32,000 bases of DNA. Origin: Acaryochloris thomasi RCC1774 (GTDB lineage: Bacteria; Cyanobacteriota; Cyanobacteriia; Thermosynechococcales; Thermosynechococcaceae). Below are positions 12,800 to 29,419 of the stretch, piece by piece. Position numbers and translations under genes: made by a program. Where the stretch lies: positions 120,001-152,000 of the forward strand of contig NZ_PQWO01000013.1 of assembly GCF_003231495.1 (NCBI RefSeq), written 5' to 3'. Each line of letters opens with the position of its first letter. The stretch's first letter is position 1. The notes beneath the pieces are model-generated. The model was not told where the DNA came from. It searched no databases and saw only the letters and a list, made by a program, of their open reading frames with translations.

Positions 12800-13831
12800 A
12801 TGACCACTTCCAATGCCGAAATCGGCTGGATTAATGGCAATGCCCGTGTAGAAGATTTAAGCGGCAAGTTTCTTGCTGCGCACATCGGCCAAATTGCTTT
12901 GATGGCTTTTTGGGCAGGCGCCTTCACCTTGTTTGAGTTGTCTCGGTACAACCCAGATATTCCCTTGTATGAGCAAGGCCTCATTTGTATTCCTCAGTTG
13001 GCCCGTTTAGGCTGGGGCGTTGGATCCGGCGGTGTCATCGTTGACACCTATCCCTACTTCATCATTGGTGTTATTCACCTAGTAGGATGTGCCGTCTATG
13101 CAGCTGGCGCACTCTATCACTCAGTAAAAGGAGCAGCTGTGCTCTCTGATGCCGATGTTGAGCGGGCACAGAAATTTCACTTTGAGTGGGATGACACCAA
13201 AAAGTCTGGCTTCATTCTCGGCCATCACCTGATTTTCATTGGTGTTGCTTGTCTGCTTTTCGTGGGCTGGGCTGCAACCTACGGTATCTATGACCCCACC
13301 ATTGGTGAAGTTAGGACAGTAGGCCCAAGCCTCAATATCGTCAGAATCCTTAAGTATGGCTGGGCTGTTCCTGGATTCAACCCTTTCTTAGTTGATAACC
13401 TTGATGACGTGATGAGCGGCCATCTATTCGTGGCAATCCTTGAGATTGCTGGCGGTATCTTCCACATTGTTGTTCCTCCGTTCGGCTTTGCCAAGCGAAT
13501 TTACGTTCAAAATGGCGAAGGTCTACTGTCCTATGCCCTTGCGGGTCTAGCGGTAATGGGCTTCAATGCAGCTTACTTCACAGCCGTGAATGATGTTGCT
13601 TTCCCAGTAGAACTGTACGGACCTGTTCTAGAGGCAAAGCTTAGCGTTACGCCTTACTTTGCAGATACGCTCGAATTTGTAGGTGGCCATACTGCTCGCT
13701 TCTGGGTTTGTAACTTCCACTTCTTCTTGGCTTTCATGATGCTGCAGGGACATTTGTGGCATGCTTTGAGAGCAAGTGGCTTTGACTTTAACCGTGTCCC
13801 TCAAGCCCTTTCTTCTATTACAGCCGAGTAA
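12800..13831 (+). CDS. IsiA/Pcb (CP43-prime) family chlorophyll-binding antenna protein
   Basis: 343 aa with six hydrophobic helices and without the large lumenal loop of CP43. Family blocks: GKFLAAHIGQIALMAFWAG, DTYPYFIIGVIHL, LGHHLIFIG and the C-terminal MLQGHLWHALRASGFDF. Confidence 0.85.
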   Translation: MTTSNAEIGWINGNARVEDLSGKFLAAHIGQIALMAFWAGAFTLFELSRYNPDIPLYEQGLICIPQLARLGWGVGSGGVIVDTYPYFIIGVIHLVGCAVYAAGALYHSVKGAAVLSDADVERAQKFHFEWDDTKKSGFILGHHLIFIGVACLLFVGWAATYGIYDPTIGEVRTVGPSLNIVRILKYGWAVPGFNPFLVDNLDDVMSGHLFVAILEIAGGIFHIVVPPFGFAKRIYVQNGEGLLSYALAGLAVMGFNAAYFTAVNDVAFPVELYGPVLEAKLSVTPYFADTLEFVGGHTARFWVCNFHFFLAFMMLQGHLWHALRASGFDFNRVPQALSSITAE

Positions 13832-14120: not shown

Positions 14121-15164
14121 GTGACAACATTTCTACGCGGAGGCCGAGGCAACGCCAAGGGCAACGTCAAGGGCAATAAAGGTAAGGCCAAAGGCCGCGG
14201 CAGACAGGGAAGAAACACTCCCCCCAGCGGCGGATTTACCACTGAATGGTGGGCCGGAAATATTCGCTTTCTAGATTCATCGGGCCTACTGCTCGGCGCT
14301 CACCTAGCCCACGCGGGCCTGATCACCCTATGGGCCGGTGCCATTCTCGTTAAAGAAGTCGCGGGCTTTACCCCCGGCGTTCCTCTGCCTGAGCAGGGCG
14401 CTTACTTGATGGCCCACATTGCCGCTCTAGGCGTCAGCGTTGGACCTGGCGGTGAGATTTTAGATACCTATCCCTACTTCGTGATTGGTGTCCTGCACTT
14501 GACCCTTTCAGCGGTATTGGCAGCAGGCGGTCTCTACCACACATTCAAAGGCCCCAATGTCTTGGCGGATGATGAAGGTGACACCTTAGCTCCTAAGTTC
14601 GAATACACCTGGGGTGAGCCGAAGAAACTTTCTTTTATTTTGGGTCATCACCTACTCTTTTTGGGTGCTGCCTGTCTGGCCTTTGCGGCCAATGCAAGTT
14701 TCGGCGGCGGCATCTACGACCCGACCGTGGGTGATGTACACCAAATTTCACCGAACCTCAACCCCTTACCCATGTTGGGCTATATCTTTGGCATCGCGAA
14801 TGGTGGCTGGACTCCCATTGGCATGGCAGCCGTAGATAATATGGAAACCCTCGTCGGTGGTCATTTTCTTATTGGCGCTCTTGAGCTAGCTGGGGGTACC
14901 TTTCACATTCTCAGTACACCTTTTGGGATTGAAGCCAAGCCTTGGTCTTACTCAGGTGAAGCGGTTTTGTCCTACAGTCTGGCGGCTTTGGCGCTAATGG
15001 GTCTGAGTTCTGCTTTGTTTGTCAACTACTGTGATGTGGCCTATGCTCCTGAGCTGTTCGGTGCTGACCGCAGTGGCGGCGCGGCGACCCAGTTGATTCT
15101 GGGCGTCCTCTGTCTGGGTGGACATCTTTGGCATGCGATTCGAGCACAGCGCGCTGTTGCGTAG
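14121..15164 (+). CDS. Divergent IsiA/Pcb family antenna protein with a basic low-complexity N-terminal extension
   Basis: 347 aa, with a GTG start at 14121 preceded by AAGAGGA 8-9 nt upstream. The core has family blocks WWAGNIRF, GAHLAHAGLITLWAG, DTYPYFVIGVLHL, LGHHLLFLG and GGHLWHAIRA. The first ~38 aa are MTTFLRGGRGNAKGNVKGNKGKAKGRGRQGRNTPPSGG. No in-frame Met is available between the GTG and the conserved WWAGN. Confidence 0.8.
   Translation: MTTFLRGGRGNAKGNVKGNKGKAKGRGRQGRNTPPSGGFTTEWWAGNIRFLDSSGLLLGAHLAHAGLITLWAGAILVKEVAGFTPGVPLPEQGAYLMAHIAALGVSVGPGGEILDTYPYFVIGVLHLTLSAVLAAGGLYHTFKGPNVLADDEGDTLAPKFEYTWGEPKKLSFILGHHLLFLGAACLAFAANASFGGGIYDPTVGDVHQISPNLNPLPMLGYIFGIANGGWTPIGMAAVDNMETLVGGHFLIGALELAGGTFHILSTPFGIEAKPWSYSGEAVLSYSLAALALMGLSSALFVNYCDVAYAPELFGADRSGGAATQLILGVLCLGGHLWHAIRAQRAVA
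14148..14195 (+). repeat. In-frame degenerate 12-nt tandem repeat encoding (G-N-x-K)-like tetrapeptides
   Basis: GGCAACGCCAAG / GGCAACGTCAAG / GGCAATAAAGGT / AAGGCCAAAGGC translate to GNAK GNVK GNKG KAKG. The first two units differ at one base. Confidence 0.7.
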
Positions 15165-15420: not shown

Positions 15421-15455
15421 ATAAAAATGCGATCGCAAGTTCTGAACTTGCGATC
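15421..15455 (-). terminator. Intrinsic terminator of the 1877-aa gene
   Basis: It lies 28 nt after the TAG stop (15484-15486) on the minus strand. The stem is a perfect 11-bp pairing of GATCGCAAGTT with AACTTGCGATC (15431-15455) and a 3-nt loop. On the minus strand it is followed by GCATTTTTAT. The stem embeds a HIP1 site. Confidence 0.6.
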
Positions 15456-15483: not shown

Positions 15484-18400
15484 CTAAACAATAGTAGAGA
15501 AGCTCTCGAACGTGAGTTTGTCTTGATTGGCCTTCACCCCATCGAGAACAGCGAGGTTCTGTCCTGTCTCGAGCAGTTGAATAAACGTGTTCTCAGTTCC
15601 GACAGTAACGCCCAACTGTTCAACCGTTAATTCGTCAGCCAATCCGAGGGTATCCACGCCGACCTGATAGTCACTGATTGTGTCTCTGCCCTGATCCACT
15701 TCAAGAACGAACACATCAGCTCCAATACCACCAGTCAAAACATCACGACCGGCACCTCCAACGAGCGTATCTTCGCCGCGCCCCCCTATGATCCGATCTA
15801 GACCGTCGCCACCTAGCAACAGATCGTTGCCTCGTTTTCCGAAGAGAATATCGCGATCCTCGCCACCATCAAGGGTGTCACGACCCGCACCCCCTTTAAT
15901 ATTGTCGCGTCCGGCACCGCCTTCGAGAAAATCGTTACCGACTAAACCACGAAGCACATCATCGCCGTTCAGTCCCTCAATAAAATCAGCATCAGCGGTT
16001 CCGATTAGCACATCACGATCATCAGTTCCTGAAATACCGGCTCTATCAACCCCTGCTAAACCCACTCGCGGATCAATATCTAAAGGCTGTTCTAACTTGA
16101 TTTGGATAATCTCGTTATTGTCGATGTCAGGTCCGCGCCCCACAGAGAAGGGATAGTTGTTGTCGTTGGCGACCAGTAAGGTATCCTCATCTAGCACCAG
16201 AACATCCTCAATCGTCACGAAGGGGAAATCAAAGGTGGTTTCTCCATCGCCATTGAGATCGTTAGGGTCTTGAATATCAAGTAAATCAACCAGCTCTTCT
16301 TTGCGAACGAAACCTTCTTCGTCTATATCTGAGAGATTCACCTTGAAGATTTTCTTGAATGCGGCCTCCTCGCCTTGGTTGCCATCGCGCTCAATCACCA
16401 GGTATTCGCTGGCGTTAATCGCGGTGAAGTCACCGATGGCGTGGCTAGGGTCATCAAGCTGATAGCGGCCCAAAACGCCTTGGTATTCACTAGAGGCCAC
16501 ATCAAAATCGTAGATGCGAAGCGAGCCTTCGGGATCACCTTCTACGGTCCCTTCTAAGAGTGGGTAGAGGGTTTGACGATCGGGGCTAATGGCTAAACCT
16601 TCAAACCCTCTAGAACCGTTAATGTTAGCCACTGCATCACCGGACTGAACGTCTGGATTCTGAGGCGATCGCACCTGATCCGCCACCAACTGATCTCGAA
16701 CCAAGTCACCGGTATTGGGAAAGTCAGTGAAGAAACCGTCTACCCCGATCTCAATCAGTTGCTGAATCTCTTCTTCCGGAGTCTGGGACGTTCCGTCTGC
16801 ATTCAGAGTTAGGAATCGCTCTTCATTGCGCAGGGTATAGGGATGAACCTGCAGACCTGCATCGTGGGCATCATCAACAAAGGATGTCACTTCGCCTGTG
16901 AGCTGGCTAGTGATTTCAGCGACGCCATCACCGTCAGCGTCGACAGGTGTTTCTAGCGCGTCTCTGAGCAGGAAGTTATTTTTCCATGGACCTGCACCTT
17001 CAGCGTATCGTTGACTGATCACCTGCAAAAATTCAGGGTTATCGAGGTCGCTGTAGAGCGTGTCCTCAGACAGCGGATTTTCAGCAGCATCAAGGAATTC
17101 CTGGCCATAGATTTCCACTAGATTATTGCGCTGCTGCACATTAAAGCGGATATCAAAAGGCACCGAGAACGTCTCATCAGGATTTGCGCCATCGGTGGCA
17201 TTTCCATAGAGCTGCACGAGGGGAATATCACCAAGATCTTCGGCATCCAGCATCGCTTGAAGTTCGATCAGGTTCTGAAATTCAAAGGATTGAATAAAGA
17301 TCCGATTGGGGTCAGTAAAGCCAGTTTCTTGGAGTGTATCAATGAGTTTCTCCTCTAAAGAAAGTCCCTGGAGATCAAAGAAGGTAGGATGCTTTGTTTC
17401 AGGGTAGATACCCACGGCTCGGCCAGTCTCAGCCTCAACTTCTTGAACTAGCTCAATAACTTCCTGGAACGTGGGAATTTCGAAGGCATCATTGAAATCT
17501 TGAGAGCGGAAATTGCGGGACTGAACGGCACGAAGCTGCTTGATCTCAGCGAGGGTAAAATCCTCAGCGAAGTAAGCTGTTGTTTCAACGCCATCCAGAA
17601 ACTTTGTAGACATCCGTTCAGAACCGAAGACCTCAGCGACGTTGGTGGTGTCGTCCAGGATCGGTTCATGACGGGCAATGAGAACACCGTCTTTGGTGCT
17701 GACCAAATCTGGTTCGATGAAGTCTGCGCCTTGTGCGATCGCAACTCGATAAGCCTCAAGCGTATGCTCAGGCAAAACACCGCTAGCTCCCCGGTGACCA
17801 ATCACAATGGGATCTTGACTATTAAGCGTATTGAGTTCTACTGGATTGGGGGTCGGAATCGGGGCATCCAACAACGTCCCGTTCGCACCAAAGTGGAGCA
17901 GATAGGGACCAAACTCATCACCGACGTAGATGTCACCATTGCTGCCAATGACGAAGGATTCAATATCAAAGTCAGCCCCGGTGAGCAAACGCTCGGTCGT
18001 GTCTCCGTTTTGGATATCGAAGGGAATCAGGCCATTGGGATCGCTGAGCTGAATAAAATCTTCAATCTCAACACTGCCGTCGCCCCCTTCAGAACCGACA
18101 AAACTGGGGTCAGCCCTATAGAGTCTGAGAAGGTAATCAGCACTGTTTTCTTGAGCGCCGAAACCATTGTCAGACAAAAACCAGAAGCTGCCGTCTCTGT
18201 CAGCAAACTGAACACCACTAAAGCCCTGGACAGGCTGCCCTTCAAAAGGACCGGTGCGGCCATTAGCATCAATAGGGTTACCCTCACCGTCATCGTTTCC
18301 GGCAGGTGGCCCTTCAGCAAAGGTATCGGCAGGCAGGGAAGCAAAGCCAACCAACTCCGAGCTCGGCGCGTCGGGTGCCACTCCAAACAGCGTTTGATAT

Positions 18401-21117
18401 GCCACCCGATAAATATCAGTGTTGTCTGTCGTGGCTGGCAGTAGGTCTGCGTTTAGACCATAGGTTTTGGAGACAATCCCTCCGTTAACGTCAGAATCAG
18501 TAGCCCAGGCAACGCCAAACTCAAACGTATCGCCGTTCGCATCAGGAGCCCCAGTCACAAATGGTTCAAAGATATCAGTGCTGAAACCAGGCACGTCATT
18601 GCTACCGTCAACATCATCGACTTGGACCAGTGTGCCGTCGGCTTCATCACCAAAGGCAGCCAATTCGGCTTGAGTCCGAAGTGTTAGCCCAGAATCAGGC
18701 AGCTCTGGATCAAGTCCAAATCCATCAATAGGCACATCATCAACCTCTAGCCCCCCTGCGTCAGAATCTGCAGCCGTAATCACCAAGGTGTTGGGATCAG
18801 TATTATCAACAAAATCAAGAGCAACACCAATTGCCTCATCCGCACGCAGGGCTGCTTCAATGGTGCCGGCAGCATTGTTATCGTTACCAAAGTTGTCTGT
18901 TCCTTCTTCTTCCAAAGCTAAGAAGAAACCATCAGGATCGCGGTCTAGAATGGGCAGCGCCACCTGGAGCATCTCAGCAACAGTAGGTGGATTGGGATTT
19001 AGGGGCGGCTGACCGTAAAGGATTAAATCGCCATTCTCATCCACCAATCCATCTCGCCGCAGTTCGTCCTCAGAAAAGTCGTTATAGGTATCTTCAGCAG
19101 CAAAGATGCCTAACAGGCGATCGGTGGTAGTAGAATCAACGGCCAGCAGTTCCTCGCGGTCAAAAACAACTGTATAACCTGCTGCTTCAGCTTCTTCAAT
19201 CAGGTTGCGGCCGTCAGTACGCGTCCCTTCTTCGCCAAAAACACCAGTGGTTCCAACTGGCAGGTAATCGGTTTCACCGGCCCCAAGGATCACATCTGGT
19301 CGCTGATCCAAGATTTCAGCGGTAATTTCCTCCGTTTGGCCCCGATTGTCCACATCAGCCAGAAAGACGCCGGTTCCGGGTTCAGCAATAAAGCCAGAGT
19401 TAATGATACCGACTGCTTTTCCTGCGGCCTGGGCCTCTTGGGCAATGGTGGCATTCTGACCAGAGAGCGCAGTAATCTCTTGACCTCCTTCATCAACCGG
19501 CGCATCAAACCCAAAACTGCCCGAAAAGGGTTTAACACCGTAGGCGTGAACAACAGCCCCAGCGTTTGATGTAGAAACTAGACGATCTTCAATATGGCCT
19601 AGATAAACGCCCGCGTTACTCAACTGATCCCAATTCAGGCGACCATCAGTCCCTTTGGATGCAAGCCTTGCCGCCGCATAGTGGGAAGGACTGGTTCCGT
19701 CCGGATGAATGAAAATCACATTGCCAGTATCGGACGTCGGTTCTGGCGCTTCACGAGGCACGAGATCATCAGGCACGCCCTCTGGTGCATCTAAACGAAC
19801 ATCAAACAGACTCTCGTAGATTAATCGATAAATGGTTGTGTTATCGAGAGTTGCAGGTAGGCGCTCAGCCCCTTCCCCGTAAGCCTTAGAAACAATACTG
19901 CCCGCGAAGTCCGGTAGGCCTGCCCAAGCAACACCGAATTCATAGCTGTTGCCGTTGGCATCAGGAGCACTGACAAAGGGTGCGGTATCACTGCCAGTAG
20001 TCCCATCCAGCGGAACTGTAATACCGCTATCTTCTCCTGCTTCGTCCAACTGTGGCTGGGTGGTGGTGGTTCCCACCGTCGGACCGGAAACATCATCAAT
20101 CTCTAAAGCGCCTCCCGCACTGTCGGCAGCGGTGACGACAAAGGTATTAGAGTTGACGTTCTCAATAAAATCTCGGGCTACCCCAATAGCAGCATCGGCT
20201 CTTAAGGTGGCATCAATTGTGCCGCGGGCATTGTTATTGTTGCCGAAGTTGTCTGTGCCTTCTTCTTCGAGAACAATGAAAAAACCATCTTCTTCTTGAC
20301 TAAAGAGATCAAGATTGAGTGTTGCCTGCAGCATCTCGGCCACAGTGGGCGGATTGGGGTTAATGGGTGGCTGACCGTAGGTAATCAGTTCACCGTTTTC
20401 ATCGACAAGACCATCTTCAATGAGTTGTCCTTCGGGCACATCGTTGTAGGTATCATCGGCAGCAAACACACCCAAAACTCGCTCGGTATCTGCTGGAAGG
20501 CTTTCCAACTGCTCATGAGTGTAGACAACGGTGTAACCCAGTGCCTCTGCTTCTTCAATCAAGTTACGACCATCGGTGCGGGTCCCTTCTTGGCCGAAGA
20601 AACCAGTCGTTCCGATGGGTAAATAATCAATTTCACCCGCAGCCATGATTACGTTCACGCCAGATTCCAAAACCTGGGCGGTGATGCCCTCGCGATCGCT
20701 ACGGCTCTCAGCATCAGCCAGAAAAACACCCGTCCCAGGCTCAGCAACGAAACCTGAGTTAATGACGGCTGTCGGACGACCCGCAACAATGGCCTCTTCC
20801 AGCGCGGTTGCATTTGGAGCCGAACCAGCAACATTCTGCCCCTGTAAGGCAGCTAGAGACTGGTATTCATCACCATTTTCATCAAAGCCAAAGCTGGGAG
20901 CCACGGCCTTGATGCCGTAGGCGTGAACCACAGCGCCTGCATTAGACGTTGCCACAACCTGATCATCCAGATGCCCAAGATAGACACCAGCAGCAGGGGC
21001 TTCATCCCAATTCAAGCGACCATCGGGGCCCACTGATTCAAAACGGGCGGCTGCAAAGTGGGACGGGTCCGCACCATCTGGATGGATAAAAATGACATTA
21101 CTCGTCATAGTCTTCAC
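15484..21117 (-). CDS. Giant secreted multidomain phosphoesterase: 2x alkaline-phosphatase-fold, phytase-like propeller with inserted GDPD, RTX array
   Basis: 1877-aa ORF. There is a GTG at 21117, but the ATG at 21108 preceded by GAGGTG is the more likely start. There is no signal peptide. AP-fold repeat 1 is aa 6-445 (nt 19783-21102) and repeat 2 is aa 466-920 (nt 18358-19722). The two repeats share NVIFIHPDG, TSNAGAVVHAYG, EGTRTDGRNLIEEAEA and NPNPPTVAEMLQ. The phytase-like (PF13449-type) N-part is aa 924-1095 (GFSGVQFADRDGSFWFLSDNGFG). GDPD is aa 1100-1475 (IGHRGASGVLPEHTLEAY...FIEPDLVSTKDGVLIARHE). The phytase-like C-part is aa 1495-1680 (SRGFEGLAISPD, YLVIERDGN, LLVANDNNYPF). Twelve RTX nonapeptides cover aa 1697-1804, followed by a 73-aa tail. 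Confidence 0.85.
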   Translation of the reverse strand: MKTMTSNVIFIHPDGADPSHFAAARFESVGPDGRLNWDEAPAAGVYLGHLDDQVVATSNAGAVVHAYGIKAVAPSFGFDENGDEYQSLAALQGQNVAGSAPNATALEEAIVAGRPTAVINSGFVAEPGTGVFLADAESRSDREGITAQVLESGVNVIMAAGEIDYLPIGTTGFFGQEGTRTDGRNLIEEAEALGYTVVYTHEQLESLPADTERVLGVFAADDTYNDVPEGQLIEDGLVDENGELITYGQPPINPNPPTVAEMLQATLNLDLFSQEEDGFFIVLEEEGTDNFGNNNNARGTIDATLRADAAIGVARDFIENVNSNTFVVTAADSAGGALEIDDVSGPTVGTTTTQPQLDEAGEDSGITVPLDGTTGSDTAPFVSAPDANGNSYEFGVAWAGLPDFAGSIVSKAYGEGAERLPATLDNTTIYRLIYESLFDVRLDAPEGVPDDLVPREAPEPTSDTGNVIFIHPDGTSPSHYAAARLASKGTDGRLNWDQLSNAGVYLGHIEDRLVSTSNAGAVVHAYGVKPFSGSFGFDAPVDEGGQEITALSGQNATIAQEAQAAGKAVGIINSGFIAEPGTGVFLADVDNRGQTEEITAEILDQRPDVILGAGETDYLPVGTTGVFGEEGTRTDGRNLIEEAEAAGYTVVFDREELLAVDSTTTDRLLGIFAAEDTYNDFSEDELRRDGLVDENGDLILYGQPPLNPNPPTVAEMLQVALPILDRDPDGFFLALEEEGTDNFGNDNNAAGTIEAALRADEAIGVALDFVDNTDPNTLVITAADSDAGGLEVDDVPIDGFGLDPELPDSGLTLRTQAELAAFGDEADGTLVQVDDVDGSNDVPGFSTDIFEPFVTGAPDANGDTFEFGVAWATDSDVNGGIVSKTYGLNADLLPATTDNTDIYRVAYQTLFGVAPDAPSSELVGFASLPADTFAEGPPAGNDDGEGNPIDANGRTGPFEGQPVQGFSGVQFADRDGSFWFLSDNGFGAQENSADYLLRLYRADPSFVGSEGGDGSVEIEDFIQLSDPNGLIPFDIQNGDTTERLLTGADFDIESFVIGSNGDIYVGDEFGPYLLHFGANGTLLDAPIPTPNPVELNTLNSQDPIVIGHRGASGVLPEHTLEAYRVAIAQGADFIEPDLVSTKDGVLIARHEPILDDTTNVAEVFGSERMSTKFLDGVETTAYFAEDFTLAEIKQLRAVQSRNFRSQDFNDAFEIPTFQEVIELVQEVEAETGRAVGIYPETKHPTFFDLQGLSLEEKLIDTLQETGFTDPNRIFIQSFEFQNLIELQAMLDAEDLGDIPLVQLYGNATDGANPDETFSVPFDIRFNVQQRNNLVEIYGQEFLDAAENPLSEDTLYSDLDNPEFLQVISQRYAEGAGPWKNNFLLRDALETPVDADGDGVAEITSQLTGEVTSFVDDAHDAGLQVHPYTLRNEERFLTLNADGTSQTPEEEIQQLIEIGVDGFFTDFPNTGDLVRDQLVADQVRSPQNPDVQSGDAVANINGSRGFEGLAISPDRQTLYPLLEGTVEGDPEGSLRIYDFDVASSEYQGVLGRYQLDDPSHAIGDFTAINASEYLVIERDGNQGEEAAFKKIFKVNLSDIDEEGFVRKEELVDLLDIQDPNDLNGDGETTFDFPFVTIEDVLVLDEDTLLVANDNNYPFSVGRGPDIDNNEIIQIKLEQPLDIDPRVGLAGVDRAGISGTDDRDVLIGTADADFIEGLNGDDVLRGLVGNDFLEGGAGRDNIKGGAGRDTLDGGEDRDILFGKRGNDLLLGGDGLDRIIGGRGEDTLVGGAGRDVLTGGIGADVFVLEVDQGRDTISDYQVGVDTLGLADELTVEQLGVTVGTENTFIQLLETGQNLAVLDGVKANQDKLTFESFSTIV
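15706..16029 (-). repeat. RTX (GGxGxDxUx) nonapeptide array, 12 uninterrupted in-phase units
   Basis: GTDDRDVLI GTADADFIE GLNGDDVLR GLVGNDFLE GGAGRDNIK GGAGRDTLD GGEDRDILF GKRGNDLLL GGDGLDRII GGRGEDTLV GGAGRDVLT GGIGADVFV (aa 1697-1804). Confidence 0.9.
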
Positions 21118-21722
21118 CTCAATCGGAGAACTAATACTCTGGGCTTATTACTAAAAGCGAAACGGACAACAGCTTTCCAAAATCACATTAAAAACTGCGA
21201 AAAGGCACTCTCAAGAGAAGAAAAAACAATATCTAAAACAAAAATTCCCAACTACATCAACTGCATCAAAGAAGAGAATCAATCATGAAATACGTGCTAA
21301 AAATGCTACGCAAAATCCAAACTCATTAAACAGGATCAAGAGATACGTAAAAATACAAGTACTCTCATATCCCTAATAAGCATAGTCTCACCATCACAGC
21401 GAAAACAGGTTAAAGTCTAGTTCAAAAACCACTAAGATAAAATTAAATTCATAATGACACGTAGATGTATTCATAAAAACTATTTTTCATAAATTCTGTT
21501 TTTTAAGTATCTTCATTTATACAAAAAGCCATCATCTAAAAAAAGATAACGGATTTCAGCAAGAAGGAGAAATAGACTACATTTCTAGTTCGGTACACAA
21601 ATGAGTATTTATTTTTCATCTAATTTCTCTCAAGCTCAACCTCAGATTTCAGCTTAAACATCAGTTTTTTTTCTACCAACAACTCATAAGTGGTTGGCTA
21701 TTAAAACCAAGTTAGAGGCAAT

Positions 21723-21752
21723 CTACTGGAGAGCATGTTTGCTCTCCAGTAG
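21723..21752. other. Perfect 12-bp hairpin inside the AT-rich spacer between the giant genes
   Basis: CTACTGGAGAGC (21723-21734), loop ATGTTT, GCTCTCCAGTAG (21741-21752). It is a GC-richer island in AT-rich surroundings, with no flanking U-tract on either strand. It lies about 350 nt downstream of the stop of the 2439-aa gene, so it may be a terminator or an RNA-stability element. Confidence 0.4.
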
Positions 21753-22099
21753 CCTTCCGCAACAAATTAATATGCCAATCTTTCAGAGAATAATATTGCT
21801 ATATGCTTTATCAGGAGTAATAGTTAAATTAAATTCAGTGCTATGCAAAAACAGCCGATCATTTTCATTTAACTCAAGTCAAAAGGAATACTTTCATAAA
21901 AACCGACATCCACCTAATTGATCAGGCGAATTAACAACTACCTAAGGCCAGATGAATAAGAGTTTAAGAATTAGTTTCATCAAGCTGACACTAGAAGCAA
22001 TCACAAAGACTACTATTGAAATTTCATCAATTCAGACTTCTTAGAAATTCAGAAAGACATTGAGATAATACGCAGCACTGCTTCGAGGGCAGTTGACGA

Positions 22100-25000
22100 T
22101 TAAACTACGGATGAGAAGGTTTGAAAGGTCAAATCTTCTACCTCCGCAGCGACATTACTCAACACGGCAAGTTGCTGATTCTCCTCCTCAAAAACAATCA
22201 GGGTATTGCCGCCTTGAATGGAGACCCCGAGCTGATCAACGGTCAACCCATCCGATAGCCCCAGAGCATCTTGCCCCATCTCGAAGTCACGAATGAAATC
22301 TCGACCTTGACCGACTTCTAGAACAAACAGATCAGCGCCACGTCCTCCAGAGAGCAGATCACGGCCCGACCCGCCAATCAGCGTATCAGCCCCAAGGTTG
22401 CCTGCAATTTGGTCACGGTCTGCGCCTCCTGATAACAAGTCAGCTCCCCTGCCGCCAAGGATAAAATCGTTACCATTACCGCCCTCGATAACATCATCAC
22501 CGCGTCTGCCATCCAGTCGGTCAAAGCCGTTGCCGCCCAATAGAGTATCGTGGCCTGCTCCTCCTCGAATATTGTCGGAGCCATTATTGCCTAACAGGAA
22601 ATCATCACCCAACAGCCCTCGGATCACGTCGTTACCGTTCAGCCCCTCGATGGCATCTGATTCAGCAGTTCCGATCAGCACGTCGCTGAAGTTGGTGCCG
22701 GTAATCTCATTCACCTGAGGGGCATCGATCACCGTATCCTCACGGAAGTTGAGGTTCTGGATGCGAGTGTCTTCTGCTGGATCCGTTTCTGCGTCGCTGA
22801 AGGCAGGCGTCGTCGCATCATCGTCCGCCGGGAAGTTAGTGGCCAAGTACTCAGCAAGCACATCTTGCTCGGTGCCTGGATCGGCGAAGGTTGCAGCGCC
22901 AGCATCGGTCAATACATCAGGAAGATCAACACGATTAGCCTCTGGACCTGTGGGGAACGGATATCCGTCACCACCATCGGCAAGGAAATTCAGGGTCACA
23001 ATGCGGAAAGTGCGGCTGGTCTCGCCCACCAGCTCTCCGCCTTGAACCACGGTGTCGATATCGTTGCCGTCTGCATCTGTGATCGTAAGAGACTGTACTC
23101 TATCGCCAGGGTCAGCATCGGGATCGAAGCTAAATTGAACCCCAGAAATCTGAGAAAACTGACCGGGTGTAGCGCCTTCTTCAGTGGCCGCAACGCTGTG
23201 CTCAACTACCTCTAGTAGCTGATCAGCCGTCAAGGTCAGCAGCGTCAGGCTGTTGTTGAAGCGGAGAGAATTATCGATATCTAGCTGAGAAATTTGACCT
23301 TCTTCCTTGCCCGAAACAGGGTTAGCCTGTGGCGGTAACTCCTTACCGTCGGCGTCGATTTCGCCGATGGGTGCCCGAATCCCGCCGCCGTTCTTAAGAG
23401 AAAGAACAACGGTCTCGTCAAAGGCCTGTGCCGCTGCAAGGTTGGCATCGGCAGTCAAGTTTCCAATATTGGTCTCTTCGGTGCGGACGCTCTCTCGCCG
23501 ACCGTCGATAAAGACATCGGTTTGACCAAAGACGTTGCCGTCTTGCTCTGCTACGACATCCGAGACGGCATTGGTAAGCTGCTGAACTCCGGTGGCTTTT
23601 GTCGAAGATGCGATGGCCGAAGGCCGGCCTTCGGCCATCGCATCTTCGACACCCTCAGTCCCGTATACCTCATTGACCACCTCATCTGTGGTGGCATAGG
23701 CGCCACTCACCTCAGAATCAACGCTATCGGTAATCACGTTACCTTCAGCATCAAACTCTAAAACCAGACGACCCACATAGCTATATTCACCGTCTGTACT
23801 GACGATCAGCACAGGGTTGCCGTTGGCATCGGTGGTCTCAAAGGGATAGTCCCCATCAGCTACATCGCCGGGTCGGAGCGTATCTGTTGCATCGGCCAAG
23901 AGCGTATCGGAGCCGCCGGCAATAATCACATCCACACCGTCTAAAAGACCCGCTAACTCCTGCTCCAGTGCAATTTGCTGCAGGTGAGAGACCAAGACGA
24001 TCTTGTTGATGCCCAGGTCACGGAGGCGATCCACCTCGGGCTGTAGGGTCTCCGCTAGGGCCACCATGTTGTTCTCTTGGGGACCAATGACGGTTGTGCC
24101 CGTGGGTGAAGAAATACTGTCCAGAATCTGGGTGGTGGCACCAATGACGCCGATTTGTTCACCACCTTCGTCAATAATCGTCGAGGGAGCAATCTTCGGT
24201 ACTTCAGTCCCTGCAAGGGATTGCTCCGGCCCCGTGCGGAAGTCTGTATTCGTCAGGATCTCATTGGTGAACAGCTCACTAAGCACTTCATCACCGGAGA
24301 AATCAAGGTTTGCTGAGAGGTAAGGGAATAGAGCGCCGACATTGCGATCGTCTTCAAGACCTGGATCTCTGAAATCAGGCGCAATGATATCGGCCAGGGT
24401 ATCCGAACCGAGGTCAAATTCGTGGTTACCGATTGCTGAGGCATCGAAACCTATCAGGTTCATGATCGCGATATCGACTCGGCCACCGCCTTCGCGCAAA
24501 CCAGCGTAGAAATCTTCAATCGCATCGCCATCCACATCCGCCGGCAAGTTGAAGAGGCCGTTGTAGAGGTCGTTAAAGATGCCGCTATCTCGGAACGCAG
24601 CCTGATCGCCTGCGGCATTAAAGAAGGGACCGGCGAGATAGTTATCGCCTGCCGAAAGCGTGATGGAGTTCTCAAACTGATCTTCAAAATTATCAATGAG
24701 AGCCGCAAAATTGGGGGCGCGCCCAATGGCATCGACTCCCCCCTCTAAATCCGATGCATGGAGAATCTGCAGCGTGAAGTTACTGGCTGGTGCATCAGTG
24801 CCGATATTCAAGCGACTCACAAGAGGTTCGTGGTCACTGGCGACCACCGTATCGTTAAATTCAATTGCATTATCGTCACGGGTAAAGTCGTTATTAACGT
24901 GAACAATGTCAAATTTCGCCTCTGGGAGTAGCGAATCGCTGACAAACGAGTGGTCCAGGACCTGACTGTTGCCATCGAAAATGAAGGTTGAGGCATCTCC

Positions 25001-28000
25001 ACCGGCCTCAGCTTGGGAGACGAGGTTCGTCAAAACCTGCTCATCTCCGGTACCCGGCAGAATCTCAGCAAGGTCATTCGTGAACTGAAAGGTATTCAGA
25101 TCACCCGTCACAACGATATTGGCATCAGACTGCGCGGCCAACGCAGCATCAACATACTCGTTAATCGCCAGGGATTGAGCTTCCCGCTCTGCTTCAGCAG
25201 CTTGCACAAAGGGCTGAGTGCCACCAAAGATAGGGGTCGATCCAAACCGAGAGGAGAAATGATTATTAATGACCGTGACGGCCTCACCATTGAAGGAGAA
25301 GGTTCCTGCAAGAGGAATGCGGCTACCAGCGAGGGCGTCAGGATTGCTGACACCGGCTGATTCTAGATTGGCAGGTGTCAAAGCTTCGGTAGAGTCGAGC
25401 GAGACCCGTTCGGGGTTATAGAGGAAAGCATTGCGGATATTGCCGCCGGGAACGCCACCCTGTGGAATCGTACTTTCGTCGGCGCTGGAGTCGGCAAAGA
25501 CGTCAAAAAACTCGTAGGTGGGGCCGCCTGAAGTTGCGATCGCATCGACTAAATCCTGCAGAGTCTGAGAAGCGTCACTGACCGCAATGTTATCTCCTCC
25601 ACTTGCCCCATCGTTATCTTGGATTTCCTGGAGCGCAATAATGTCAGGTGAACCAAGATTAGCCACAATCTGCTCGGCCAGCAGCGATCGTTGTCGCGCA
25701 TCGGGATCGGTGACATCATCTTCCACCGCCGCTGTACTGGTCAAATTCAAGACGTTGTAGCTGGCAATCGTCAGCTGATCCTCGCTCCCCGTTAGCGTTG
25801 TGACTTCCTGCTCCAGGCCACCGGGGGTAACGACATTGACGGGTCCTGTCACATTAACCTCGAAGTTACCGAAGCTGTAACCGACCACTCCCGTTACATC
25901 TCCAAGCTGATCACCCACGTTTAAAGCCGGTGGTATCTCTTCTCCAGAAATTGTGGGATCAAACTGGATCTGAACCCGCTCTGGATTCTGATCGCCAGTA
26001 TTGTCAGGACCAGAGTTGAGGGGAATACCGCCCCGACTGTTGGGCGGATCGTCAGACGTTGCCCCCTGGTTAGGAAGCGTAAAGGCTTCTGCAGAGAAGT
26101 CACCAAAGACCCGCGTCGGTGAGACGGTGACCGCATCTTCAATCGTGACCCGCTGACCTTCAATACTTTCAAAGAAATCAATGGCATCATTTTCTGGATC
26201 AAAAGTATTCGCCGCATCGTCGGCTGTATCCCGTAGATTCACCGGCAGCTCATCGTCACTAATGACGGTTGTATTCGACGGTGACCGGCCACTCTGCCTA
26301 ATCACCACAGCTTCTGGCAAAGCATTACCACTGGAAAGAACCGTAATCTCAGAAGATGCAATCTGAGTAATGGAGAGGTTACCGGTATCGGCCCCACCTG
26401 GAATAAATTCGCCCACGGTGCCAGCAACCTCTAGCTGATCACCCACGGCAATGTCAGGGGTAGACCCAGTGAACACAAAAATGCCATCTGAAGTGTTGTC
26501 GTTGCCGTCGCCGGTGGGGTCTTGCAGGTAGAAACCATTGAAGGCCACTGCGGTCACAACACCACTCGTCGTCACATCGCTATCCACCAGCGTCGAGACA
26601 TGGCCCTCTCCCTGAATCGTGGAGATAGAGGTTAGGCCGTCACCATCGCCTAAATCATCAATCTCGAAAATCGTAGTACTCCCGCTGACTTCGTTACCGA
26701 CGACAAGTAAAGGAGAACCGTTGGGACTGTCTTCAGCAGAAATAAACAGCAATCCCTCAGGGCCAAGATCGCCTGCCGCAGGGTTCAGTGTGCCGTCGGG
26801 TAGCTCCACATCAACGGTGAAGTCACGATTGTTGATGTACTGAACAAACTCAGAGTTTGCCGGATCAGAGACATCGAACACCACAATGCCACCAATCCGC
26901 TCTAGACCGATAAAGGCGTAGGTGCGATCGCCCACAACGCCCACCGCGAGGCCTTCTGGCTCTGGCCCACTGTCATTGCTACGGCTATCAAAACTCCCAT
27001 TTTCATCATTATCGGAGTTGAAGGCTTCTGGAAGTAACTCTGCCGTAATCCGTTCGAGCTGGTCCCCGCTGTCAAACACTAAATTGCCCAAGGCATCGCG
27101 GATAGAAAAAGAACGGGAGCCAAAGGCAAATAGCTGATCGAAGTCGCCATCACCATCGATGTCCCCATCTACGCTGGAAACCTCTAGACGCCCCAAGTTC
27201 TCTTCGAGCTGGAGATTGGCAGCATCAGGAAACGCCTCTGGGTCGAGTGTCAAATCTTCGACACGCTCAATATCGGTGAGATCGTCAAAACTATCTCGTC
27301 CATCACCTTCGTTAGCTGTGATGAAGAAGGTCTGACCATTGGCATCAAAAGAAGCAATGGTGTCGGGCTGGAACAATCCAAAAACCGGAAAATTATCAAT
27401 ATTGATACCCCCATCTTCATCGCTAGGATCTAAGCCATTGGTGGCTTCATCGAAGCTGATTAGCCCCAGTTGAGTGGATGTGCCAGGGCCTTCATAGTCG
27501 TTGTCGTTAATGACGGCAAGGCGGCCATCCTCAAGGAGAGCCAAGCCTTCGGCTTGAGCACTAGGACTAAAACCAAGGGACGGTAAATTCGTGACTTGAA
27601 TCTTGTTAACAGGTTGAATGCCTGCTGCGACAAGTTCATCAGGGGAGAGCTGCTCTATTGTGGTGCCTTCAGTTGCGTTGGATAAATCGGTCCCCAGAAT
27701 ATTTGTGGCTCCCTGGAGGTCAATCTGAAAAATGCGTTGCTGGGCTGTATCGATGTCTTCGTTATCGCGTTCAATGACATAAAATTGTCCATTTCCTGCG
27801 AACACCACATCGCCAATGCGATCGACTTCAGCATCACCAAAGTCGATCCCAGAATCTGTGGTGATCAATGATGGCGTTTGCAGAACGTAGACAAATTCCT
27901 CCACTGGCTCTCCAGTCGTTGGATCAATGCCTAAAATCCGCAGGATGCTAGATCCGTTACTGGTGTCAGTATCGGGGTTAGAAAGTGGCGTTTGAATAAA

Positions 28001-29419
28001 GCCGTACACGATGTTGCGTTCATCATCAAAAGCGATGCCTTCGAACCCTCGGTTGTTGCGACGGTTCAAGTAAACTTCAGGGAGTGTTTCAGTCCCAAAC
28101 GTTCCGGCGGTCGCACCTGATTCGTCTTGGGCGGCAAAGCCAGTGGGCACAAATCGATCAATCAATACGCCTTCAGAGGAAAAGACATTGATAGAGGGTC
28201 CCTGTTCGTCAGCAACAAAGAGGTTACCGTTCGGGGCTCTGACAATGCCTTCGCTGTCTAGGCCAAAAGGGTCGTTGGGCAGTGGCTCACCTGTAGCCGG
28301 ATCAACGGGTACTTCAAAAAATCCTGGAATGTTTGGCAGTCCTGTGATGGGAACTTGGGCCCCGTCTACCTCACGGGTCAGGCCCAGGCGATCGACAACA
28401 GAAACCTGACCAGAGGCTTCATCTAACTCGAGTGTGAGGACGGTGACCTGAAGATCGGGAACCAAGAAAGGGCGATTGCTTGAATCAGGATCGGGCGTAT
28501 CAATCGTGCCACTAACGGGGCCACGATCATTAATAGCCAAGAACCGCGGATTACCGTTCTCTGGATTGACGCCATCGAAGGCGAGTCCCGACAGCCCACC
28601 TAGAAAAATGGGATTGCCATCAGCATCCGTTCCGATTTGAAAGGAGTCTGTTGTTAGGTCAGGAATATCAAAGGTTTCGAGCTGCGGCAATCCTCGACTA
28701 AAGTCTGTAACGCCCAGGGGTAGAATATCCACCAACTCGGCAGTTTCAAGATTGACCACTGCAATGGCATTGTTCTCTTGCAGCGTCACAAAGGCAGTGC
28801 TGCCATCGGGAGCGACAGAGATAAATTCAGGCTCTAAATCTTGAGCAACGGTGCGACCGGGGAAGATGCGAACACCGTCACCTCGCAAATCGTTCTCGCG
28901 TCCATTAAAGGCAGAGAAATCAGCCGTTGCTACGGTTGCACCCTCTACTCCCTCAGTTAGATCGATGATACTTATAGACCCTTCGGGATCGAAAGTCAGC
29001 AAATCATCGTCATCACCAACGGGTTCGCCCTCATTCGCCACTACTAGCCTGGTACCATTCGGCGTAAAGGTGACGGCGTCTGGCAAAACGCCGACTCCAA
29101 CGACATTCAAGAGGCTTAGGTCAGCTGCATCAAAGAAGGCAACCGTTCCAGTTTCGGTGGCTGTGACATCCTCTAGAGCGACAGCAACAACTCCATTGGC
29201 AACGGCAACGCTGTTAGGTCCACCGCTGAGGCTGACGTCAATCGCGTCAATGAGGGTCGGACGGGTTGGGTCTGAGAGATCAAGAACATCAATACCGTTA
29301 CTATCACCATTGACAACAAAGAGTCTTTGACTAACTGAGTCAAAGGCCACAATTTCAGCGGCGCTTTCATCGAAGACACCCGTCGCAAATGTACCAATTT
29401 GATTGAGTTCAATTGCCAT
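22100..29419 (-). CDS. Giant secreted multidomain protein: choice-of-anchor-I propeller with inserted phytase-like domain, ExeM/NucH-type EEP nuclease, 5'-nucleotidase/metallophosphatase, RTX array
   Basis: 2439-aa ORF starting at ATG 29417-29419, with no signal peptide. The choice-of-anchor-I N-part is aa 1-245 (FATGVFDESAAEIVAFD, LVVANEGEP, VTLQENNAIAVV). The phytase-like domain is aa ~270-645 (GGLSGLAFDG, NRGFEGIAFD, FYVIERDNE, LAVINDNDY). The choice-of-anchor-I C-part is aa ~660-920 (GGINIDNFPVFGLFQPD, FITANEGDGRD, GPEPEGLAVG, NEVSGSTTIFEI). The nuclease N-region plus EEP domain is aa 925-1537 (nt 24809-26647; IASYNVLNL, IIALQEIQDNDG, TGDLNTF, ASDHEPLV). The metallophosphatase plus 5'-nucleotidase C-domain is aa 1548-2225 (nt 22745-24778; LSAGDNYLAGP, AIGNHEFDLG, NGGGIRAPI). 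Fourteen RTX nonapeptides cover aa 2241-2366, followed by a 73-aa tail. Confidence 0.85.
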   Translation of the reverse strand: MAIELNQIGTFATGVFDESAAEIVAFDSVSQRLFVVNGDSNGIDVLDLSDPTRPTLIDAIDVSLSGGPNSVAVANGVVAVALEDVTATETGTVAFFDAADLSLLNVVGVGVLPDAVTFTPNGTRLVVANEGEPVGDDDDLLTFDPEGSISIIDLTEGVEGATVATADFSAFNGRENDLRGDGVRIFPGRTVAQDLEPEFISVAPDGSTAFVTLQENNAIAVVNLETAELVDILPLGVTDFSRGLPQLETFDIPDLTTDSFQIGTDADGNPIFLGGLSGLAFDGVNPENGNPRFLAINDRGPVSGTIDTPDPDSSNRPFLVPDLQVTVLTLELDEASGQVSVVDRLGLTREVDGAQVPITGLPNIPGFFEVPVDPATGEPLPNDPFGLDSEGIVRAPNGNLFVADEQGPSINVFSSEGVLIDRFVPTGFAAQDESGATAGTFGTETLPEVYLNRRNNRGFEGIAFDDERNIVYGFIQTPLSNPDTDTSNGSSILRILGIDPTTGEPVEEFVYVLQTPSLITTDSGIDFGDAEVDRIGDVVFAGNGQFYVIERDNEDIDTAQQRIFQIDLQGATNILGTDLSNATEGTTIEQLSPDELVAAGIQPVNKIQVTNLPSLGFSPSAQAEGLALLEDGRLAVINDNDYEGPGTSTQLGLISFDEATNGLDPSDEDGGINIDNFPVFGLFQPDTIASFDANGQTFFITANEGDGRDSFDDLTDIERVEDLTLDPEAFPDAANLQLEENLGRLEVSSVDGDIDGDGDFDQLFAFGSRSFSIRDALGNLVFDSGDQLERITAELLPEAFNSDNDENGSFDSRSNDSGPEPEGLAVGVVGDRTYAFIGLERIGGIVVFDVSDPANSEFVQYINNRDFTVDVELPDGTLNPAAGDLGPEGLLFISAEDSPNGSPLLVVGNEVSGSTTIFEIDDLGDGDGLTSISTIQGEGHVSTLVDSDVTTSGVVTAVAFNGFYLQDPTGDGNDNTSDGIFVFTGSTPDIAVGDQLEVAGTVGEFIPGGADTGNLSITQIASSEITVLSSGNALPEAVVIRQSGRSPSNTTVISDDELPVNLRDTADDAANTFDPENDAIDFFESIEGQRVTIEDAVTVSPTRVFGDFSAEAFTLPNQGATSDDPPNSRGGIPLNSGPDNTGDQNPERVQIQFDPTISGEEIPPALNVGDQLGDVTGVVGYSFGNFEVNVTGPVNVVTPGGLEQEVTTLTGSEDQLTIASYNVLNLTSTAAVEDDVTDPDARQRSLLAEQIVANLGSPDIIALQEIQDNDGASGGDNIAVSDASQTLQDLVDAIATSGGPTYEFFDVFADSSADESTIPQGGVPGGNIRNAFLYNPERVSLDSTEALTPANLESAGVSNPDALAGSRIPLAGTFSFNGEAVTVINNHFSSRFGSTPIFGGTQPFVQAAEAEREAQSLAINEYVDAALAAQSDANIVVTGDLNTFQFTNDLAEILPGTGDEQVLTNLVSQAEAGGDASTFIFDGNSQVLDHSFVSDSLLPEAKFDIVHVNNDFTRDDNAIEFNDTVVASDHEPLVSRLNIGTDAPASNFTLQILHASDLEGGVDAIGRAPNFAALIDNFEDQFENSITLSAGDNYLAGPFFNAAGDQAAFRDSGIFNDLYNGLFNLPADVDGDAIEDFYAGLREGGGRVDIAIMNLIGFDASAIGNHEFDLGSDTLADIIAPDFRDPGLEDDRNVGALFPYLSANLDFSGDEVLSELFTNEILTNTDFRTGPEQSLAGTEVPKIAPSTIIDEGGEQIGVIGATTQILDSISSPTGTTVIGPQENNMVALAETLQPEVDRLRDLGINKIVLVSHLQQIALEQELAGLLDGVDVIIAGGSDTLLADATDTLRPGDVADGDYPFETTDANGNPVLIVSTDGEYSYVGRLVLEFDAEGNVITDSVDSEVSGAYATTDEVVNEVYGTEGVEDAMAEGRPSAIASSTKATGVQQLTNAVSDVVAEQDGNVFGQTDVFIDGRRESVRTEETNIGNLTADANLAAAQAFDETVVLSLKNGGGIRAPIGEIDADGKELPPQANPVSGKEEGQISQLDIDNSLRFNNSLTLLTLTADQLLEVVEHSVAATEEGATPGQFSQISGVQFSFDPDADPGDRVQSLTITDADGNDIDTVVQGGELVGETSRTFRIVTLNFLADGGDGYPFPTGPEANRVDLPDVLTDAGAATFADPGTEQDVLAEYLATNFPADDDATTPAFSDAETDPAEDTRIQNLNFREDTVIDAPQVNEITGTNFSDVLIGTAESDAIEGLNGNDVIRGLLGDDFLLGNNGSDNIRGGAGHDTLLGGNGFDRLDGRRGDDVIEGGNGNDFILGGRGADLLSGGADRDQIAGNLGADTLIGGSGRDLLSGGRGADLFVLEVGQGRDFIRDFEMGQDALGLSDGLTVDQLGVSIQGGNTLIVFEEENQQLAVLSNVAAEVEDLTFQTFSSVV
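22322..22699 (-). repeat. RTX nonapeptide array, 14 uninterrupted in-phase units
   Basis: GTNFSDVLI GTAESDAIE GLNGNDVIR GLLGDDFLL GNNGSDNIR GGAGHDTLL GGNGFDRLD GRRGDDVIE GGNGNDFIL GGRGADLLS GGADRDQIA GNLGADTLI GGSGRDLLS GGRGADLFV (aa 2241-2366). Confidence 0.9.

Follow-up and report, generated by a model that had tools for sequence, protein, structure and literature searches.

Alkaline phosphatase (AP) of the PhoA type is the textbook two-zinc enzyme, and marine biogeochemistry equates the gene name "phoA" with a zinc requirement, which is the basis of the zinc-phosphorus (Zn-P) co-limitation idea. In current papers, PhoA of cyanobacteria counts as an enzyme of Zn and Mg (PMC6713934, PMC11665274), and omission of Zn/Mg in Halothece led to the conclusion that PhoD, not PhoA, was the more active alkaline phosphatase (PMC6713934). 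The present analysis concerns a gene of Acaryochloris thomasi RCC1774, located on a stretch of 32,000 nt (contig NZ_PQWO01000013.1, positions 120,001 to 152,000 of the forward strand; hereafter the window), that encodes two PhoA-type domains in tandem within one chain. In both domains, the three His residues that bind zinc in E. coli PhoA are replaced by Asn, Ser, and Asp. The product will be called the tandem-AP protein and its AP domains repeats 1 and 2 (AP1 and AP2). By sequence, such domains form a distinct, large, mainly cyanobacterial clade of the PhoA family, PF00245, and this clade, which is routinely assumed to need zinc, probably does not.

PhoX and PhoD follow the ecological logic that is proposed here for the repeats, namely extracellular P scavenging without zinc, and both require Fe3+ besides Ca2+ (PMC6723241, PMC11098088). 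However, their folds are unrelated to that of the repeats, and neither was among the Pfam matches of the tandem-AP protein at E ≤ 0.1. Psip1, another candidate, is PhoX-like and also unrelated to the repeats (PMC11098088). The enzyme known as PhoAaty (Synechococcus PCC 7942 PhoA, dinoflagellate AP) is associated with P starvation and is reactivated by Ca, Mg, or Mn, not by Zn (PMC6723241). PhoAaty has no recognisable PhoA domain (PMC4548154) and corresponds to the phytase-like family PF13449, under which a Nodularia "atypical alkaline phosphatase" is annotated (PMC9846622), whereas the repeats are bona fide PF00245 domains and therefore belong to a different family. Like PhoAaty, the tandem-AP protein has a phytase-like PF13449 domain, located elsewhere in the chain, and thus it joins PhoA-type and PhoAaty-type modules.

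A cyanobacterial enzyme that shares the PF00245 type with the repeats is All2843 of Anabaena sp. PCC 7120, which is induced by P starvation and occurs in the exoproteome (PMC7564538, PMC4390845). Neither the 120 best relatives of the clade member of Nostoc PCC 7524 nor the cluster names included a protein from Nostoc PCC 7120. A literature search of incomplete coverage, so that a prior description is possible, returned no description of a Ca-dependent, Zn-independent, or His-less PhoA, and a search for older work on the biochemistry of Calothrix/Rivularia phosphomonoesterases likewise returned nothing.

Arylsulfatases, members of the AP superfamily, bind Ca2+ by an Asp/Asp/Asp/Asn set at the site equivalent to M2, the second metal site of PhoA. 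They resemble the repeats in their all-oxygen coordination sphere and in the substitution of the Asp-His pair, which reads Asp-Asn in the sulfatases and Asp-Ser in the repeats. On the other hand, sulfatases use one metal and a formylglycine derived from a C/S-x-P-x-R motif, whereas the repeats have three side-chain ligands at M1 and a plain Ser. Pfam gave no sulfatase match for the tandem-AP protein, which is also without Cys, and this identity was rejected.

The assignment of the repeats to the PhoA family is supported by several lines of evidence. The tandem-AP protein matches PF00245 twice, with 243.3 bits in total (Pfam cut-off 24.4), and it falls below the cut-off of the E. coli-type PhoA equivalog NCBIfam NF007810/PRK10518 (118.6 vs 540 bits). 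In a phmmer search of the PDB sequences, E. coli PhoA was matched by repeat 1 at 2e-13 and by repeat 2 at about 5e-20. Furthermore, when the AlphaFold2 model of repeat 1, with a predicted local distance difference test (pLDDT) of 82 and a predicted template modelling score (pTM) of 0.88, was compared with the PDB by Foldseek, E. coli alkaline phosphatase ranked first (probability 1.0, TM 0.66-0.69); none of the solved structures retrieved was closer than about 20% identity. Tandem AP-fold domains had been proposed in a first-pass annotation made from the DNA letters and their translations, and these results bear the proposal out.

Residue equivalences to E. coli PhoA were derived from four independent alignments: the phmmer one; a MAFFT alignment of the AP repeats, E. 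coli PhoA, and 70 single-domain homologues; a family profile against the PDB sequences, which matched the Vibrio AP at 2e-32 with the same equivalences as the first two; and the family profile against the nearest classical relatives. Residues of the tandem-AP protein are counted from the GTG at 21117. Like the classical enzymes of E. coli, Vibrio, and Halomonas, the repeats share the family, the fold, the nucleophile S102 (S58 in repeat 1, S517 in repeat 2), R166 (R139/R592), and the acidic residues D51 (D14/D473), E322 (E284/E736), D327 (D289/D741), and D369 (D332/D784). They differ at every His ligand, H331 being replaced by N293/N745, H370 by S333/S785, and H412 by D403/D876. Thus, neither zinc ligand set is conserved: the Zn1 set D327/H331/H412 reads D289/N293/D403 in repeat 1 and D741/N745/D876 in repeat 2, and the Zn2 set D51/D369/H370 reads D14/D332/S333 and D473/D784/S785. 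At the Mg site (D51, T155, E322, with D153 via water), the Asp and the Glu are kept, while T155 is changed to G128/G581 and D153 to E126/E579; the adjacent Thr129 might substitute. Two further positions are altered, D101 to T57 and K328 to N290/N742. The repeats differ from the classical enzymes also by an invariant His12 and by their tandem arrangement in one chain.

The equivalence of H412 required separate attention, as the PDB profile alignments end short of this residue and, in the MAFFT alignment, the invariant Asp of LPDFAGS missed its column by one. The replacement of H412 by Asp is deduced from the ungapped register D403-x10-G414, which matches H412-x10-G423 of E. coli PhoA, and from the GHTG His of four classical relatives (P0305, P0334, P0341, and P0349), which shares a profile column with D403/D876. 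These four proteins, from Methylomirabilia, Cellulomonas, and metagenomes, are the nearest classical relatives in a search of representatives of 1.84 billion proteins. The third ligand had not been placed by the first-pass annotation, which had claimed that all three canonical His ligands are gone; its identification as the invariant D403/D876 completes that claim. The other block assignments of the annotation were reproduced by the alignments, which place IHPDG on D51, TSNAG with its retained Ser on S102, EEEGTDNFGN with Asn at the His position on the E322/D327/H331 block, and AADS with Ser at the His position on the D369/H370 block. Its account of the His distribution is likewise exact (residues 12, 20, 49, 65, and 201 in repeat 1; 471, 479, 508, and 524 in repeat 2).

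Conservation was assessed on 133 AP-domain copies extracted from 78 genome loci. All of them carry D14, S58, E126, G128, R139, E284-E286, D289, N290, N293, D332, S333, and D403, and the 13-residue signature H-D-S-E-G-R-E-D-N-N-D-S-D (HDSEGREDNNDSD) is identical in 133/133 copies, except for its His12, present in 132. Because they are invariant in all the domain copies, the His substitutions are not noise. No His falls on a metal-ligand position of PhoA, the fold is that of AP, and the Asn and Ser substitutions, whose conservation the annotation had proposed to check, do not vary. In the 50%-identity cluster representatives of the 1.84 billion proteins, HDSEGREDNNDSD is constant among those scoring between 1317 and about 210 bits, and at lower scores the classical [IV]DS[DH]TREDxHDHH takes over abruptly; no graded intermediates were seen among these representatives. 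As for the remaining His residues, His12 (IHPDG; 21076-21084 on the minus strand for aa 12-14) is I, V, or L in classical APs, the nearest ones included, and His65, seven residues after the nucleophile, is family-specific and occurs in 133/133 copies. A few diverged members of the clade (P0236, P0254, P0261, P0265, and P0269) lack R166, E322, the Ser nucleophile, or still further positions, as illustrated by the signatures of P0261 (EGTSRARDAAEND) and P0265 (QSGNGREGRRENA); these probably are genuine pseudo-enzymes that descend from His-free ancestors within the clade.

A genome scan returned at least 581 loci and, among the matches listed, each record was cyanobacterial or a metagenome-assembled genome (MAG). 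The clade includes Crocosphaera, Lyngbya, Pleurocapsales, Rivularia/Calothrix, Nostocales, and Acaryochloris, together with a small number of other prokaryotes; members beyond the cyanobacteria (P0262/P0367 and P0216) are Serpentinimonas barnesii WP_206741111.1 and the tandem protein NKQ38159.1 of a Methanosarcinales MAG. Serpentinimonas inhabits Ca-rich, hyperalkaline (pH>11) serpentinising springs. In the Nostocales, the majority of members consist of a single AP domain in a protein of about 448 aa, which carries a signal peptide but no other catalytic domain. The database names of clade members are all "alkaline phosphatase" or "glycerophosphoryl diester phosphodiesterase", and no member was found in the viral contigs searched.

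Two AP domains occur in 66 of the 83 AP-bearing open reading frames (ORFs) of the loci, with tandem proteins typically 1050-1100 aa long. The nearest relative of a domain usually comes from the same position in another protein (52/54 of the domain 1 copies and 51/54 of the domain 2 copies), and therefore the duplication is old and the full site has been kept in both copies. An AlphaFold2 model of the 935-aa tandem, built on an alignment of the window and search-derived sequences, had a pTM of 0.89, and its active-site loops and linker reached higher confidence (pLDDT) than in the single-domain model, which indicates a fixed packing of AP1 against AP2. This packing possibly imitates the PhoA homodimer within one molecule.

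Taken together, we lean towards reading the repeats as active PhoA-type phosphomonoesterase domains whose two metal positions, lined by oxygen ligands alone, would hold a hard cation, most likely Ca2+. The hard cation is suggested by the ligands (Asp/Asn/Asp, and Asp/Asp/Ser with the Ser nucleophile), by the Ca2+-binding sulfatases, and by the companion modules, all of which come from Ca2+-dependent families (GDPD/GlpQ, beta-propeller phytase, RTX, and the phytase-like atypical phosphatases). The presence of a clade member in Serpentinimonas, from Ca-rich springs, fits this reading. M1 would be formed by Asp289, Asn293, and Asp403, at the places of D327, H331, and H412, and M2 by Asp14, Ser58, Asp332, and Ser333, at those of D51, S102, D369, and H370. 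The surroundings of M3 would be remodelled, with Glu126 and Gly128 for D153 and T155, Asn290 for K328, and the extra Glu285 and Glu286. A very low Zn2+ affinity is expected for such a site, and Ca2+ is its most likely occupant, Mg2+ or Mn2+ being possible as well; mutants of E. coli AP (H412N/Q, H331Q, and D369N) exist as structures of weakened Zn sites, according to the titles of the PDB matches. The Ser58 alkoxide would then attack a phosphomonoester held by Arg139 and the two metals, in a PhoA-like manner.

The tandem-AP protein, which is signal-peptide-less, Cys-free, and very acidic, would probably be exported by type I secretion. Outside the cell, its GDPD and phytase-like domains would turn glycerophosphodiesters and other organic P compounds into monoesters, from which the His-free AP domains would release phosphate by using metals abundant in seawater, and substrates may be channelled from one domain to the next. 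Extended to the whole clade, and put forward tentatively, the same idea would describe a widespread group with the PhoA fold that performs two-metal phosphoryl transfer without His or Zn, on Ca2+ (or Mg2+/Mn2+) alone, and that holds the first His-free bimetallic site of the AP fold.

Several points weigh against a Ca2+ centre. Ca2+ falls far short of Zn2+ in Lewis acidity, and the known Ca-containing phosphatases PhoX and PhoD rely on Fe3+ as well; catalysis by a centre with Ca alone may therefore be poor. His12, which is invariant, family-specific, and placed two residues before Asp14, could be a compensating ligand, and the znuABC and CDF genes that stand beside the orthologues in two Acaryochloris genomes could supply Zn or Mn to the AP. 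All2843, provided that it belongs to the clade, is a further point, because it is said to contain Zn and Mg; Luo et al. in 2010 reportedly described it as a "monomeric heat-labile classical PhoA" with "differences in metal coordination" relative to E. coli and a Zn:Mg ratio of 2:1.

Some of these points would also be explained if the repeats were active phosphatases still using a transition metal (Zn2+, Mn2+, Co2+, or Fe) on carboxylate, amide, and hydroxyl ligands, perhaps together with His12, and hence not independent of trace metals. This alternative appears unlikely, although it deserves serious attention. The invariant His12 is found strictly where the three classical His residues are missing; it is however more likely a second-shell residue than a ligand, since it lies two residues back along the beta-strand from Asp14, a position that is probably too deep to reach the metals. 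From general chemistry, activation of the Ser nucleophile makes sense with a Lewis acid stronger than Ca2+, yet oxygen-only sets of Asp, Asn, and Ser are atypical of catalytic Zn sites. Regarding the genomic context, znuABC, with a His-rich ZnuA, and a CDF gene are found directly upstream in A. marina MBIC11017 and Acaryochloris sp. IP29b_bin.148, and a P-starvation-induced extracellular "alkaline phosphatase" of Nodularia, which may or may not belong to this family, adjoins a CDF transporter (PMC9846622). The znuABC/CDF neighbourhood is nonetheless lacking in the window and in 76 of the 78 other loci, and Zur-controlled neighbourhoods typically also hold zinc-independent substitutes, so that the znuABC adjacency can be read either way.

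It is improbable that the site was rebuilt for a changed reaction or substrate, such as a phosphodiesterase, a nucleotide or lipid-headgroup phosphatase, or a phosphite/phosphonate-related activity. The alteration of the specificity positions (D101 to Thr57, D153 to Glu126, T155 to Gly128, and K328 to Asn290), the notorious promiscuity of AP-superfamily members (PMC12704751), and the fusion of the AP domains to a diesterase speak for it, whereas Arg166, the hallmark of monoester recognition by PhoA, is invariant; such a change would in any case be compatible with an oxygen-only metal site. Least probable of all is that the repeats are non-catalytic, for instance modules that bind phosphoesters or phosphate and thereby tether or feed the catalytic domains behind them. 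The loss of all three canonical His ligands, the presence of other catalytic domains (GDPD, phytase-like) in the same chain, and the clear decay of a few diverged relatives (P0261 and P0265, above) would fit this idea. Against it, the nucleophile, the Arg, and the four Asp/Glu ligands are kept together with the replacement residues in 133/133 copies and hence in the two products of an ancient duplication, and the replacements are specific and metal-competent oxygen donors (Asn, Ser, and Asp), not random ones; moreover, the stand-alone secreted proteins of about 448 aa in Nostocales make little sense as accessory modules. Between the two explanations offered by the first-pass annotation, a non-Zn centre or a pseudo-enzyme, ligand chemistry and domain context therefore favour the former, with Ca2+ as the best candidate, and the invariance of the catalytic set in both repeats disfavours the latter.

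If the clade is indeed zinc-independent, the assumption that phoA equals zinc demand fails for many cyanobacteria, including diazotrophs like Crocosphaera, and the "phoA" that is counted as zinc demand in cyanobacterial genomes, transcriptomes, and metagenomes would be largely zinc-independent. For enzymology, it would represent a natural experiment in which the three His residues of a bimetallic site were changed to Asn, Ser, and Asp against a constant background of nucleophile, Arg, and carboxylates, with direct relevance to the way in which the identity of the metal shapes catalysis across the AP superfamily. The zinc question is addressable with one small soluble protein of about 448 aa.

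The features of the gene and of its surroundings are collected in Table 1. The probable true start of the tandem-AP ORF is the ATG at 21108 (Met4 in the numbering used), because the orthologue of A. marina MBIC11017 begins with MTSNVIF right after a stop codon; this orthologue has 1881 aa and is 83% identical to the tandem-AP protein over its full length. AP1 starts at residue 4-6, which leaves no room for an N-terminal signal peptide, and the composition of the protein is unusual, with 0 Cys, 18.5% Asp plus Glu, and 5% Lys plus Arg. The absence of a signal peptide and the C-terminal nonapeptide repeats are features of RTX/type I substrates, while no ABC exporter, membrane-fusion protein, or TolC-type component was found among the annotated genes of the window, to which this search was confined. 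The phytase-like domain (aa 961-1655; 16153-18237 on the minus strand) is split by the GDPD domain.

Table 1. Features of the tandem-AP gene and its surroundings (window positions, except for the two loci in the last row).
Feature	Position	Strand	Remarks
Tandem-AP giant gene	15484..21117	-	1877 aa: AP1, AP2, phytase-like with inserted GDPD, RTX repeats
Alkaline-phosphatase domain 1 (AP1), aa 1-447	19777..21117	-	PF00245; phmmer vs PDB; AlphaFold2 + Foldseek
Alkaline-phosphatase domain 2 (AP2), aa 463-915	18373..19731	-	PF00245; phmmer vs PDB; 58% identical to AP1
Phytase-like PF13449, N-terminal part, aa 961-1093	17839..18237	-	Profile positions 1-110
GDPD PF03009, glycerophosphodiester phosphodiesterase domain, aa 1108 to ~1440	16798..17796	-	Inserted into the phytase-like domain
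Phytase-like PF13449, C-terminal part, aa 1470-1655	16153..16710	-	Profile positions 98-284
RTX/hemolysin-type Ca2+-binding nonapeptide repeats, aa ~1697-1850	15568..16029	-	PF00353, 74.6 bits; presumed type I secretion signal region
Asp14 codon (= D51), in IHPDG; His12 two codons upstream	21076..21078	-	Repeat 2: Asp473 at 19699-19701
Ser58 codon (= S102 nucleophile), preceded by Thr57 instead of D101	20944..20946	-	Repeat 2: Ser517 at 19567-19569
Motif E284-E-E-G-T-D289-N290-F-G-N293-N-N-N (= E322...D327-K328...H331)	20230..20268	-	Repeat 2: 18874-18912 (E736...N745)
Asp332-Ser333 (= D369-H370), Ser for His	20119..20124	-	Repeat 2: Asp784-Ser785 at 18763-18768
Asp403 codon (= H412), in LPDFAGS	19909..19911	-	Repeat 2: Asp876 at 18490-18492
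Terminator-like hairpin, 11-bp stem + T run	15431..15455	-	29 nt past the stop codon of the tandem-AP gene
Upstream intergenic region, 980 bp	21118..22099		35% GC vs ~50% elsewhere; weak Pho-box-like direct repeats clustered
znuABC/CDF cluster	L001 653-4681 (A. marina MBIC11017); L027 105-3489		Two Acaryochloris genomes

The upstream neighbour of the tandem-AP gene (22100-29419, minus strand) encodes a second giant protein of the secreted type, 2439 aa long, with choice-of-anchor I, phytase-like PF13449, endonuclease/exonuclease/phosphatase, and 5'-nucleotidase C-terminal domains and with RTX repeats. The two genes form an organic-phosphorus scavenging locus, and each has its own terminator-like hairpin, that of the 2439-aa neighbour being at 21908-21931. 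In the intergenic region between them, the Pho-box-like repeats cluster on the strand of the tandem-AP gene, the best one (21407-21425, minus strand) having 1 mismatch. However, the number of such repeats in the whole window is not above that of shuffled sequences (24 vs 17.5 +/- 4.3), and the cluster is indistinguishable from an effect of AT-richness.

In A. marina MBIC11017 and Acaryochloris sp. IP29b_bin.148, the genes immediately upstream of the tandem-AP orthologue are znuA, znuC, and znuB with a divergent CDF gene, and the encoded ZnuA has a His/Asp/Glu-rich loop of about 100 residues. This adjacency is confined to the two genomes and therefore no general association with the clade exists; Chlorogloeopsis has an ABC-3/ZnuA set, at a distance. 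The adjacency could reflect zinc supply, a zinc-sparing regulon, or nothing. The stand-alone member of Nostoc PCC 7524 and Chlorogloeopsis fritschii (L079 6474-7886 and L082 6407-7843) is divergently paired with a gene for an RPE65-type carotenoid oxygenase. This conserved divergent gene, which may reflect retained synteny or a functional relation, was all that the two neighbourhoods yielded when read for hints of the metal.

On the other side of the tandem-AP gene, the window contains two adjacent genes on the plus strand (12800-13831 and 14121-15164) for CP43/IsiA/Pcb-like chlorophyll-binding proteins (PF00421, about 345 aa), typical of Acaryochloris. The AT skew swings strongly in two places, 10-11 kb and 13-14 kb, where genes for membrane proteins lie on opposite strands.

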